Of a stretch of 64,000 bases of DNA, positions 12,766 to 16,524 are shown piece after piece. The DNA is taken from positions 1-64,000 of the forward strand of contig JBFMGU010000003.1 in the NCBI GenBank assembly GCA_040752415.1, given 5' to 3'. Position 1 is the first letter of the stretch. Each line of letters starts with the position of its first letter. The stretch comes from Myxococcota bacterium. GTDB lineage: Bacteria; Myxococcota; JACRCW01. A model generated the notes under the pieces. That model saw only the letters and a program-made list of their open reading frames with translations. It ran no database searches and had not been told where the DNA came from. A program made the position numbers and the translations under genes.

Positions 12766-15700
12766 ATGAGCACGCACAACCACGCGCACGAAACTCCCCG
12801 GGACCCCCGCGAGCGCCTCCGTCACGAGGTGGAGCACGCCAGTCATCTGCTCGCGGCGCAGGGGCCCATCCGCACCTTTGTGCACCACAATACGCTGCAT
12901 GGCCTGCAACACCTGCACTTCGACGACGCCATCCGGGAAGCGGAGCGCGTGCTGGGAGGGCAGGGTTATCTGCCGGTGGAGACGTTCCGGCGCCTGCACG
13001 TCGAGGGACGTATCCCGCGGGACCAGCTGCTGCGCGCGCTGGAGGAGCTGTCCGGCCTGCCCCTGACCGAGAAGCCAGCGGCCAACGTCACCGTGCGCGA
13101 CGTGGTGATGGCCCACCTGCTCCACGGCGTGGACCGGGCGTCTCCGTCGGAGTTGGCGTGGGAGATCGAGGGGCGGGGTGCGTTGGGCCGCTTGCGCGGG
13201 GACCTGCCGGCGGACGTGCGCGCGCAGTTGCTGCGGAAGGCCCACGACGAGCTGGAGCGTGGAGTTGCGCGCATTGGCGTGGAGTGGACCATCTCGGACT
13301 GGCTGGGCTCCATCACCGGTCTCGACGTGGCCGGGCATGTCACACGGGTTGCCGCGAGCGGAGGAGACGCCGGTGGCGCGGAACGCGCGTTGCGCGAGCT
13401 GGGGATTCCCGTCGAAAAGCGGGCGGGATACGTCGAGCTTGCGCAGCGTCGATGTCCTTCCGGACCGGACGCGTGGCTGCACCTGGAGGCGTTGACCGTG
13501 TCCGCGCTGGCGGAACGGCATTGGAGCGTGGAGGGAAATCTTCCGTCGCTGCAGCGCCACTTCCGAGAGCACGTGGAGGCCTATGCCGCCGAGACGCTTT
13601 GGCGCGCCTGCCTGGGCATCTGGGCCCTCGAGGACCCCACGTCTCCGACGGACGCCGCGTTGTCCCCGCGCGACCCGCACGGAGGCGTGGCCGAGCAGGC
13701 GTGGATCCATGCGGAGGAGATGGAGGCGGCCGGCGGTCCCGCGGTCACGTTGACGTCGTCACAGGTGGCCACCGTCCAGGCGCTGCTGACGCGAGCGGAC
13801 GAGGGTGACCACGCACGCCTGTGCTGGACCATCCAGCGCGAGTTGCGGGCAGCGGAGCTGGGGCGCGCAGGCTTGGAAGCGCTGCGCACGTTGCTCTCGC
13901 TCCACGCCGATGAAGTGGCTGCCAGGTTGCAGGAAGAGCTGCGCACGCAGGACCCGCACGCGCGCATGCTCGCCCACGCCCACGACGTCGCGACGAGCCT
14001 CATGGACGGACTGGCACACGGTTCCACCCACCGTGACGTTCTCCTGGCGGTCACCGGCGTCGACGTCAACGAGCGCGTGCATCCACGCATGTTGGAGCTG
14101 TGCTCCGCGTTCCTCGACGGAGGGATGGCCACCTGGCGCATGCCCGGTCGGACGCTCGGCCTCTACGACGCGTGGCGGAACCATGCTTCGCATGTGCTCG
14201 ATCTCGGAAATCCCGACGACCAGGAGCTGAAGTCGGCGCTCGCGGAGCTTCCCGTGCTGCCCGTGGACGCGGTGTTGCAGTCGCTGCGCGCGCTTGGTGT
14301 CGAGGAGGAGGCGTGGGGAGGGTACCTGGGACGCATCCTGCTGCAGCTGCCGGGATGGGGCGGGATGATCAGCTGGATGGAGCGCTCCGGACGACGGGAA
14401 CGCTCCGTGGACCTGGTGCAATTCCTCGCGGTGCGACTGTTCCTCGAACGGATGGAGATTGCGCGGCTGGCGCGTCGGACGTGGCACGTGGAGGGGACCA
14501 CCGAGGGCCTGCGCCAGTATTTCCTGACCCACCCCGAGGAGATCGTGGTCCGGCGGGAGCTGTTCTCCGGTTCCCTCCCCGAGCACCTGGCGGAAACCGC
14601 GCGACACCTCTGCCACGACGAGAATCCCCGACACCGCGCCGGTTGGACCTCGCTCGCGAATCTCCTGTGGCACCACCACGAGATCACCGGCGGCATCTCC
14701 GCGCATGACCACGCCTGGCGTCTCTTCCACCTCTCGCAGCTGCTGGGCCTGGGCGCCGAGGAGGTCCGTGCGCTGACCCGCGACGACGCCACGGCGCTGC
14801 TGAGGGTGCTGGACGGGTTTCCCGTCGAGAAGCACCGGCGCATCTGGCAGGCCGCGTATGAAAGCACCTACCGCGACCAGGTCCTGGACGCGCTCTGGCA
14901 GAACCGCGGGCGTGGACGTTGGAAGGACCGCCCGACGAGACCGCGCGCGCAGATTGCTTTCTGCATCGATGACCGGGAGGAGTCGTTCCGTCGTCACGTG
15001 GAGGAGATTGACCCGGAGTACGAGACGCTGGGCGTGGCCGGGTTCTTTGGCGTGGCCGTGCACTACCAGGGTCTCGACGACGAGGCGGCCAGCGCGCGCT
15101 GTCCCCTGGGTGTGAACCCGCAGCACCACGTGCGCGAGGTGGCGCAGGAGGATGCGGGGCGACAGATGGCGCGTCATCGCTCGGAGTCACGCTGGCAGCA
15201 GGCGGTTTCCGACGTGTTGTGGGAGCTGCGTCGCAGCCTGGTGGGCAGCTACTTCCTGGTGGACCTGGTGGGGGCGGTCTCGGCGGTGCCCTTGCTTGGG
15301 CGCGTGGCGTTCCCCGGCGCGTTTGACGACGTGGCGAACCGCGTCCGTAGCCCCATGAACACCGCCGTTCCCACCCGCCTCACCGTGGACGCGCGGGAGG
15401 TGGACGGACGCCGCAGCGGGTTCACCACCGCCGAGCAGGCCGACCGCGTGGAAGCCACGTTGCGCAACATGGGATTGACGTCGGGATTCGGGGCGGTGGT
15501 GCTGCTGTTTGGTCACGGATCCATCAGCGTCAACAATCCACACCTTTCCGCGTACGACTGCGGCGCGTGCGGCGGCAACCACGGTGGCCCCAACGCACGA
15601 CTCTTCGCCGCCATGGCCAATGCGCCGGAGGTGCGCGCGGTGCTGGCCACACGCGGCATCGTGATTCCCGACGACACCTGGTTCGTGGGCGCGGAGCACA

Positions 15701-16524
15701 ACACCTGCAATGAGCTGCTCACGTACTACGACACCGACGTCATTCCCGCGTCCAACAAGCAGGCCTTCGCGGAGCTGGTGAAGGACATGGAGGAGGCGCG
15801 TCGACGTTCCGCGCACGAGCGGGCTCGGCGTTTCCGGTCCGCGCCGCGCAATCCCACGCCGGAGCGCGCGTTGCGGCACGTGCAGGAGCGCGCGGTGGAC
15901 CTCAGCCAGGCGCGACCGGAGCTGGGACACGCCACCAACGCCTGCGCCGTCGTGGGGCGGCGGTCCCTGACGCGCGGGGTGTTCCTGGATCGCCGCGCGT
16001 TCCTCATCTCCTACGACGCCACGCAGGACCCCACGGGGAGCATCCTGGAGCGCATCCTGATGGCGGTGGGGCCGGTGGGGGCGGGCATCAACCTGGAATA
16101 CTACTTCTCCACCGTCGACAACCTGCGCTTCGGCTGCGGCTCCAAGGTGGTGCACAACGTCAACGGGCTGCTCGGCGTGATGGACGGTCCGCGCAGCGAC
16201 CTGCGTACCGGGCTCCCCAAGCAGATGGTCGAGATCCACGAGCCCATGCGGCTGCAGATGATCGTCGAGGCCAGCACGGAAACCCTCGGCGCCATCTACG
16301 GACGACAGAAGCCGTTGCAGGAGCTCATTGGCAACGCGTGGGTGCACCTGGTGGCCGTGGACCCGCACAGCGGGGAGGCCTCGGTGTTCACGCCTGGCCG
16401 GGGATTCGTGCCCTGGACGCCGCCGGGGAGCGCGCTCCCAACGGTCAAGGCCTCGTCGGACTGGTACCGCGAAAAAGCGGATTTCATTCCTCCCGCGCTG
16501 ATCCAGGGGGACCGCCATGCTTGA
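12766..16524 (+). CDS. DUF2309/DabA-like protein (putative beta-CA-like CO2-hydrating subunit of a DAB-type complex), unusually long (1252 aa)
   Basis: N-terminal [20 protein letters not shown] matches the conserved DabA/UPF0753 N-terminus. Internal [13 protein letters not shown] (CxDxR) and [30 protein letters not shown] (His/Cys) resemble the Zn-ligand motifs reported for DabA. It starts 11 nt after the upstream ND4-like gene, and its 3' end overlaps the next gene by 8 nt. Confidence 0.8.
   Translation: [1252 protein letters not shown]

Follow-up and report, generated by a model that had tools for sequence, protein, structure and literature searches.

A long-form DabA gene in a cluster of antiporter-like genes

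The DNA analysed here, a 64,000-nt stretch from a Myxococcota bacterium (GTDB lineage JACRCW01; assembly GCA_040752415.1, contig JBFMGU010000003.1, positions 1–64,000; hereafter the window), carries at 12766–16524 a gene for a DabA protein of 1252 amino acids (aa). All positions given below are those of the window and lie on its forward (+) strand unless marked otherwise. The assignment to the DabA family has already been made: the identical protein in NCBI, encoded on a 94-kb contig, is labelled 'MAG: putative inorganic carbon transporter subunit DabA [Myxococcota bacterium]', where MAG stands for metagenome-assembled genome. What is new here is that the protein is a rare long form within a large, experimentally untouched DabA clade, that it is encoded with multiple full-length antiporter-like partners, and that it has a canonical histidine at the site to which the vectoriality of DAB is ascribed. 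A previous reading of the letters alone (the sequence-only reading) had pointed to the length of the protein, and indeed the characterised family members are shorter, with 1046 aa for DabA1 and 827 aa for DabA2 (bioRxiv 10.1101/476713).

The open reading frame (ORF) is a single uninterrupted gene that starts with an ATG 11 nt past the stop codon of the preceding gene, with a GGAG ribosome-binding site 6 nt before the ATG. Since the source genome has a GC content of ∼69% and long chance ORFs are therefore common, we plotted GC content by codon position. Third-position GC (GC3) was 0.78–0.95 in one and the same frame from end to end, without a break, which excludes a frameshift or a shift in codon bias. 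A search of Pfam returned a single match, to PF10070 (DabA), covering profile positions 1–747 of 747 and residues 22–1193 of the protein (E 1.6e-253, 844 bits), so that the extra residues lie inside the domain and do not stem from a fused second gene. No other Pfam family matched the protein at E ≤ 0.01, and no NCBIfam model matched it. PF10070 also goes by the names DUF2309 and YbcC. The frameshifted or fused gene that the sequence-only reading had named as the way in which it could fail was thus excluded by the GC3 plot and the end-to-end Pfam match. Together with these two results, the identical annotated MAG protein and an AlphaFold2 (AF2) model (see below) identify the product as a long-form DabA, the cytoplasmic, beta-carbonic-anhydrase-like subunit.

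Translational coupling links DabA to four full-length antiporter-like subunits of the complex I type, here called M1, L, N and M2, followed by a SulP-family protein, in the gene order M1-DabA-L-N-M2-SulP with neighbours abutting or overlapping. M1 (11145–12755, 536 aa), directly upstream of DabA, is a NuoM/NdhD-like subunit (PF00361, E 3.2e-70; TIGR01972 NDH_I_M, 499 bits) whose best match in the PDB was NdhD1 (6hum_D, E 1.2e-99), and in which the glutamate motif of transmembrane helix (TM) 5 and the lysine motifs of TM7 and TM8 are conserved. On the other side, the start of L (16517–18553, 678 aa) overlaps the DabA stop codon by 8 nt, so that a PF00361 gene of the DabB type directly adjoins DabA. 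L is NuoL-like (PF00361 and Proton_antipo_N; NF005141 NuoL, 430 bits), carries a long C-terminal extension resembling a lateral helix as well as a terminal TM helix, and is likely the DabB equivalent. Its matches to NdhF, Nqo12 and NuoL had E-values of ∼1e-70, versus 1.3e-29 for DabB2.

The third antiporter-like subunit, N (18553–20082, 509 aa; NuoM/N-like, PF00361 E 1.6e-45), begins at the last base of the L stop codon. Its frame was read from GC3: a listed ORF of 474 aa at 18654–20078 without a Pfam match proved to be a wrong-frame shadow of the real gene. The conserved TM7 lysine motif of N reads AIRIPVFPFHTWLP, with arginine in place of lysine. M2 (20069–21586, 505 aa) is again NuoM-like (PF00361, E 6.3e-55; TIGR01972, 431 bits), and the last gene of the cluster encodes a SulP-family anion transporter (21540–23234, 564 aa; PF00916, E 9.5e-54), which the BicA and DauA models matched weakly, below cut-off. 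No small ORF that would fit a DabC-like protein lies between the genes of the cluster. The acidic residue after a conserved 'LY' near TM12, an aspartate in the NdhD1, NuoM and Nad4 sequences shown, is a histidine in M1, an arginine in N and an alanine in M2 (an approximate position, not E. coli numbering). Given the lysine-to-arginine change in TM7 of N and these changes around TM12, the additional subunits may include some that are incomplete as proton channels.

The catalytic core and its zinc site

To place the active-site residues, we aligned the protein with HMMER (phmmer) to the solved DabA2 of Halothiobacillus neapolitanus (PDB 9rd0_A, E 1.2e-77) and counted residue equivalences from the alignment. 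The residues C733, D735 and R737 of the motif FCIDDR fall on C351, D353 and R355 of DabA2, while H917 (in GHGS) and C932 (in DCGAC) fall on H524 and C539. All five columns are invariant in an alignment of 79 homologous sequences. The segment CIDDR (14962–14976; the CxDxR motif begins at F732, and C733 is encoded from nt 14962) thus holds the first zinc-ligand cysteine and the Asp-Arg dyad, and the second and third zinc ligands lie at H917 and C932 (15514–15561), within a GHGS...DCGACGG region that spans G916–G937 (15511–15576). The N-terminal FVHHNTLH block (residues 38–45; 12877–12900) is also present, with F38, N42 and L44 invariant in the 79 sequences. Its histidines H40, H41 and H45 are common to DabA1-like sequences; the DabA2-like sequence P0081 reads FVAVNPLG instead. 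All three motifs named in the sequence-only reading were accordingly found where it had placed them, and its suspicion that the CxDxR and H...C motifs are the ligand columns was borne out by the alignment to the solved structure.

A type II beta-carbonic anhydrase is one in which an aspartate replaces water as the fourth zinc ligand, in a closed T-state. The description of the DabA site in these terms, with Cys/Asp/His/Cys ligands, goes back to an older inference of 2018–19 and had been carried over to this protein. The zinc-site columns on which it drew are intact, but the wording itself is outdated: in the cryo-electron microscopy (cryo-EM) structures of DabA1 and DabA2, zinc is held by two cysteines, a histidine and water, and the aspartate is part of an Asp-Arg dyad (bioRxiv 10.64898/2026.03.13.711513, 10.64898/2026.05.01.722082).

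Further elements of the core are a lid motif, GVAGFFG (residues 756–762; 15031–15051), and an NNPxxxxxDCGACGG loop from residue 923 onward. The former fits the lid GI(A/G)GFFG that was defined, along with the loop, in the DAB1 cryo-EM preprint (one of bioRxiv 10.64898/2026.03.13.711513, 10.64898/2026.05.01.722082). Residues ∼823–850 (15232–15315) form the only strongly hydrophobic stretch of the protein (Kyte-Doolittle up to 1.78) and fall into AF2 helices 798–823 and 825–848. This hairpin sits 85–116 residues past the first zinc-ligand cysteine, the same offset as that of the elbow of Thermocrinis albus DabA (534–565; first cysteine C449), and by this analogy it is predicted to insert into the membrane as an elbow or finger. 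Judged by its residues, the protein has a complete DabA core, comprising the Cys-His-Cys zinc site, Asp-Arg dyad, lid motif, hydrophobic hairpin and NNP...DCGACGG loop.

A histidine in the coupling motif

One feature of the core departs from all DabA1- and DabA2-type sequences that we compared. In a gap-free alignment to D648...L658 of DabA2, the coupling-motif segment (15898–15930) ends in H1055, which falls on Leu658 (9rd0_A); the equivalent residue of T. albus is Leu825. In the 2026 DAB2 cryo-EM preprint, Leu658 is reported to be strictly conserved across 150 DabA2 homologues; for DabA1 and DabA2 taken together, conservation of this leucine is described as strict or broad. The 1055 column holds histidine in 72 and asparagine in 3 of 75 clade members, and leucine in 4 of 4 DabA1/2-type sequences. 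Among the best 80 related loci, which we annotated, every one in which the motif was found had histidine or asparagine. The DAB motif DW(xxx)RPEWGL is altered beyond this residue: its two tryptophans, which contact DabB, and its leucine read Leu, Leu and His here.

According to the structural papers, Leu658/Leu825 of DabA replaces the Gln/His hydrogen-bond donor of beta-carbonic anhydrases and CsoSCA, and the lack of this donor in DabA1/2 is argued to work against both the binding of bicarbonate and the reverse reaction. With a histidine for leucine at the bicarbonate/transition-state position, the active site would thus be closer to that of canonical beta-carbonic anhydrases and CsoSCA than to the DabA1/DabA2 site. 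The sequence-only reading had overlooked both this histidine and the four full-length antiporter-like subunits and SulP protein of the operon. The sequences with asparagine at the 1055 column form a subclade (P0066, P0070 and P0076, together with L073 from a Pirellulaceae MAG) in which the histidines of the N-terminal block are lost as well, the block reading FVFLNTLQ or FAFLNPLE.

Distribution and architecture of related loci

Scanning one genome per GTDB species, we found this His/Asn clade in at least 597 species-level genomes, including those of methanotrophs, nitrifiers, Accumulibacter, myxobacteria and planctomycetes. The annotated loci fell into three architectures. Three-gene loci (DabA-L-M, with or without SulP; Sorangium, Corallococcus, Pirellulales and others) encode a DabA of 973–1068 aa and an L of 433–484 aa. 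Five-gene loci (M1-DabA-L-M-M, with or without SulP; Methylococcales, Nitrosomonadales, Accumulibacter, Chromatiaceae, Magnetococcales, Thiothrix) have a DabA of ∼1009–1156 aa and an L of 501–532 aa. Long-form loci keep the five-gene order, often with a fifth PF00361 gene, and have a DabA of 1252–1314 aa and an L of 678–778 aa. M1 lies upstream of DabA in all long-form and five-gene loci. The order M1-DabA-L-M/N-M was present in ∼45 of the 80 loci, with hosts in Methylococcales, Nitrosomonadales, Accumulibacter, Chromatiaceae, Magnetococcales, Actinomycetota, Polyangium and Roseovarius, and SulP recurs as a neighbour in many of the 80. DabA length correlated with L length (Spearman 0.75, n = 58). 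The long C-terminal extension of L is homologous across the long-form loci (L002–L005), whereas L of the five- and three-gene loci has only 433–532 aa.

We then searched residues 149–432 of the protein against 1.84 billion representative proteins (E ≤ 0.001). Only 18 clusters were retrieved, all of them long DabA proteins of 1252–1437 aa or fragments thereof. Long forms occur in at least four phyla, namely in Myxococcota, Actinomycetota (including Rubrobacter), Acidobacteriota and, among the alphaproteobacteria, Roseovarius autotrophicus. In an approximate neighbour-joining tree of the catalytic core, they form one group close to where the myxobacterial/planctomycete branch begins.

A few of the related loci stood out in other ways. 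A second pair of DabA and L genes lies beside the five-gene cluster in Methylomicrobium lacus (L006, 4069–6878 of that locus), in divergent orientation, and in Thiothrix (L023, 16064–19907), in tandem. Five-gene clusters of the proteobacterial type were also found on a contig labelled Candidatus Bathyarchaeota archaeon (L022) and in a Synechococcaceae cyanobacterium (L051), where DabA is split in two pieces; mis-binning or horizontal transfer could account for both.

N-terminal expansions

The excess length was located by aligning the protein to 24 relatives and to sequences of the DabA1 and DabA2 types (the 25-sequence alignment). It resides in three places, all N-terminal to the catalytic core: residues ∼152–294 (13219–13647), ∼300–417 (13663–14016) and ∼590–640 (14533–14685). 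This agrees with the proposal in the sequence-only reading that lineage-specific insertions, one of them in the region of the second expansion, account for the extra residues. The first expansion is predicted to be helical. Over residues 152–279 the median residue count was 140 (range 127–140) in long forms, versus 18 in five-gene forms, 59 in three-gene forms and ∼0–1 in DabA1/2. The second, which follows a disordered linker at 294–307, is confined to long forms and contains conserved sub-motifs; the corresponding medians over residues 279–433 were 172, 82, 34 and 51. In the 25-sequence alignment, the third was present in long forms and in the DabA1-like sequences (P0080, for instance); the DabA2-like sequence lacks it, as do those clade members of medium or shorter length that the alignment includes. 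Over the wider segment 558–654, five-gene forms are about equal in length to long forms.

The segment at ∼330–420 had been described as Arg/Glu-rich. We did not find this: residues ∼300–417 contain 8.6% Arg and 9.5% Glu, near the values for the whole protein (10.1% and 7.7%), and are instead helical and rich in Ala and Leu. An AF2 model of residues 1–1200, computed with 79 sequences, had a mean predicted local distance difference test score (pLDDT) of 87.7 and a predicted template-modelling score (pTM) of 0.85. It shows the expansions as confident helices and 294–307 as a disordered linker, and a second model of residues 149–432 alone agrees on the helical expansions. Structure prediction, suggested earlier as a way of finding extra domains, thus predicts the insertions to be ordered parts of the N-terminal domain. 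Foldseek comparison of the 1200-residue model with the PDB gave no significant hit (best E 0.056); DabA2 and CsoSCA were not retrieved either, so this search is uninformative on the fold.

As to the origin of the first expansion, hhalign related residues 202–240 to 500–540 (P 86%, E 5e-6) and 250–281 to 570–601 (P 53%). Pairwise BLAST among segments of the N-terminal domain gave no convincing match to an internal repeat. The profile matches are a moderate hint, short of proof, that the expansion may have arisen by internal duplication. In sum, the extra ∼200–400 residues are helical expansions of a poorly conserved N-terminal domain, neither an extra catalytic domain nor a fusion.

Flanking genes

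Outside the cluster, the flanking genes are housekeeping genes and genes for TPR proteins. Two very large TPR-repeat proteins (3793–7269, 1158 aa; 7923–9944, 673 aa) and an NlpC/P60 peptidase (9963–10511) are encoded directly upstream on the same strand. A 138-aa ORF at 10544–10960 had no Pfam match and no counterpart in the 80 related loci. Downstream lie genes for two radical-SAM proteins (28162–29382; 34656–36425, − strand) and a 680-aa FG-GAP repeat protein (29522–31564, − strand), amid housekeeping genes such as purA, uvrC, an AIR-synthase-related (purM-like) gene and a PP2C gene. An 817-aa ORF at 39303–41756 combines an amidohydrolase (dihydroorotase-like) region with aspartate/ornithine carbamoyltransferase domains and looks like a fused pyrimidine-pathway gene.

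Function of the complex

We consider it likely that this DabA is the catalytic subunit of a DAB-type vectorial carbonic anhydrase that is driven by protons and belongs to an uncharacterised type with multiple subunits. If the structures of DAB1 and DAB2 are taken as a guide, the complex would carry out energy-coupled CO2 hydration. DabA would dock on the NuoL-like subunit via the hydrophobic hairpin, and proton flow through the membrane subunits would remodel or gate the way to the buried zinc site. CO2 that diffuses in would be hydrated irreversibly and trapped as cytoplasmic bicarbonate. In a heterotrophic myxobacterium, this bicarbonate would feed carboxylases rather than a carboxysome. A link to inorganic carbon is also seen in the SulP adjacency, which recurs in the related loci and in clade C of the COGNAT analysis (PMC5700660). 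Because DabA lengthens in steps as antiporter-like partners become more numerous and the lateral-helix extension of L grows, the expansions would most likely act as a scaffold across the cytoplasmic face of an enlarged membrane array, or along the lateral helix of L. The suggestion in the sequence-only reading that the insertions contact antiporter subunits would fit this relation.

Several observations weigh against this interpretation. L resembles true NuoL/NdhF more than DabB2, and, with the coupling-motif residues W, W and L replaced by L, L and H, the coupling interface of DAB1/2 is not conserved in detail. The length correlations reflect three phylogenetic classes and not independent events. 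Rubisco and carboxysome genes were not found within the 64-kb window, so that a CO2-concentrating role for autotrophy is unsupported here. The literature searched contained no biochemical or genetic data on any clade member, and on the His clade, the five-gene cluster and the long form it held nothing besides the COGNAT neighbourhood note.

Other explanations bear on different parts of the picture. As the sequence comes from a MAG, one might suspect that the unusual length is artefactual, with two genes fused by a frameshift or by misassembly, or with a wrongly called start. The chance of this is negligible: the ORF keeps a single GC3 frame over its full length, the insertions lie inside one Pfam match over residues 22–1193, an ATG with a ribosome-binding site lies 11 nt past the upstream stop, and independent long forms of 1224–1437 aa align with 99–100% coverage in other assemblies, including those of the isolates Polyangium sp. 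y55x31 and Roseovarius autotrophicus. A better case can be made for the expansions being lineage-specific decorations of a tolerant domain, without specific contact to the extra membrane subunits. In DabA2, conservation is lowest in the N-terminal domain, whose main role is believed to be folding support (bioRxiv 10.64898/2026.03.13.711513), P0005 lacks much of the ∼300–417 segment, and the proteobacterial five-gene forms get by with far smaller expansions. We nevertheless hold neutral insertion to be rather unlikely, as sequence blocks within the insertions are kept across Myxococcota, Actinomycetota and Acidobacteriota at 43–50% overall identity, AF2 is confident on the expansions, and they strictly co-occur with an elongated L that has a homologous C-terminal extension.

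It is also conceivable, albeit improbable, that the complex serves a purpose other than inorganic-carbon uptake, as an Mrp- or complex-I-like ion-translocating machine with DabA-like CO2/HCO3− chemistry. Its task might lie in pH or ion homeostasis, in the kind of bicarbonate-dependent Na+/H+ exchange that has been proposed for MpsAB, or in a reverse, dehydration-linked operation enabled by the histidine. Four antiporter-like subunits and a NuoL-like lateral helix bring the cluster nearer to complex I and Mrp than to known DABs; His1055 restores the hydrogen-bond donor whose lack was taken to disfavour the reverse reaction; the host looks heterotrophic from the neighbouring genes; and the COGNAT authors first proposed that an exergonic chemistry drives ion export (PMC5700660). 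However, the whole catalytic and gating apparatus of DabA is conserved, the recurrent SulP neighbour belongs to a family that includes bicarbonate carriers, and many hosts of five-gene loci are autotrophs or C1 users (Nitrosomonas, Thiothrix, Nitrotoga, methanotrophs). Moreover, the DabA2 mutant L658Q still supported growth while showing no CO2 hydration in vitro, from which its authors conclude that catalysis stays dependent on membrane potential.

Returning to a proton-driven carbonic anhydrase as the preferred role, we see as a tentative and, on balance, unlikely extension that the long-form cluster is an ancestral-type intermediate between the membrane arm of complex I/NDH-1 and the streamlined DAB1/DAB2, with a five-subunit array made up of a NuoL-like subunit bearing a full lateral helix, three NuoM/N-like channels and a DabA whose enlarged helical N-terminal domain spans the array and whose active site retains the canonical histidine. 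If so, several proton channels could couple to one CO2 hydration, or run reversibly, and the idea from the 2026 structures that leucine makes the reaction vectorial would not be general.

Efforts to engineer crops and industrial microbes for CO2 uptake count DAB pumps among their candidates. Structures that describe how these pumps are coupled date only from 2026 and comprise one DAB1 and one DAB2. Two generalisations made from them do not hold for the clade, a single proton-translocating subunit and a conserved leucine replacing the canonical hydrogen-bond donor. In the rare long form, a NuoL-like lateral helix comes on top, together with an N-terminal domain of DabA that is expanded as well; the long form so offers a natural experiment on the number of channels per carbonic-anhydrase site and on the relation of DAB to complex I. 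Such questions, which should interest specialists in CO2-concentrating mechanisms and in complex I evolution, are testable in the cultured hosts Polyangium sp. y55x31 and Roseovarius autotrophicus SHN287.

Comparison with known systems

The nearest solved relative, DAB2 of H. neapolitanus (PDB 9rd0), shares with the present system the Pfam family, zinc ligands, Asp-Arg dyad, lid, finger hairpin and NNP..DCGAC loop, as well as an adjacent PF00361 partner. It differs in the size of DabA2 (827 aa with a 280-residue N-terminal domain, versus 1252 aa with ∼720 residues before the core), in having one antiporter-like subunit instead of four, and in its N-terminal block (FVAVNP versus FVHHNT). Leu658 is a histidine here, W649 and W656 are leucines, and L matches DabB2 at E 1e-29 only. 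The marks of the DAB2 subtype, DW(xxx)RPEWGL with Leu658 and two subunits, are thus replaced by H1055 and a five-subunit operon.

With DAB1 (DabA1-DabB-DabC of T. albus and H. neapolitanus), the common features are a large DabA (∼1046 aa), an FVHHN-type block, the ∼590–640 segment and more than one membrane subunit, the second one of DAB1 sitting where NuoM sits beside NuoL. According to the 2026 cryo-EM preprints, characterised DAB2 has a single DabB, and DAB1 combines DabB with a small, non-Pfam, non-pumping DabC. DabC is devoid of proton-pathway residues, whereas the cluster here encodes three full-length PF00361 partners besides L (Lys/Glu motifs checked in M1). Furthermore, the NNPYESALDCGACGG motif, strictly conserved in DabA1, reads differently, L825 of DabA1 is a histidine, and the distance from the first zinc cysteine to the histidine ligand, the flexible-arm region of DabA1, is 184 aa versus 259–273, i.e. 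∼80 shorter. None of the three hallmarks of the DAB1 subtype (NNPYESALDCGACGG, a small non-Pfam DabC, Leu825) is therefore seen.

The COGNAT 'clade C' of YbcC/COG3002 was defined by a ybcC gene upstream of a nuoL homologue with NuoM (COG1008) and SulP (COG0659) neighbours (Klimchuk et al. 2017; PMC5700660), and the order M1-DabA-L-N-M2-SulP has this neighbourhood. Clade C was a gene-neighbourhood pattern only, its function then unknown, and the long form, the histidine substitution and a set of four antiporter-like genes with M1 upstream all go unreported in that paper (PMC5700660).

Beyond the family, the cyanobacterial NDH-1MS/MS' complexes (NdhF3/NdhD3/CupA) offer a functional analogy, in that NuoL-like and NuoM-like subunits bear a cytoplasmic CO2-hydrating protein; M1 and L indeed match NdhD1 and NdhF best. 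CupA, however, is unrelated to DabA, no CupA/ChpX homology being seen with PF10070 as the sole Pfam family at E ≤ 0.01, and the cluster has no redox module genes. Finally, the membrane arm of complex I and Mrp resemble the present system in the NuoL-like subunit with its lateral-helix-like extension and terminal TM helix and in the three NuoM/N-like subunits. They differ in their small subunits, as the cluster contains none of the NuoH/A/J/K or MrpC/E/F/G type and, because its genes abut, has no room for them, and in gene order, with DabA here placed between M1 and L.

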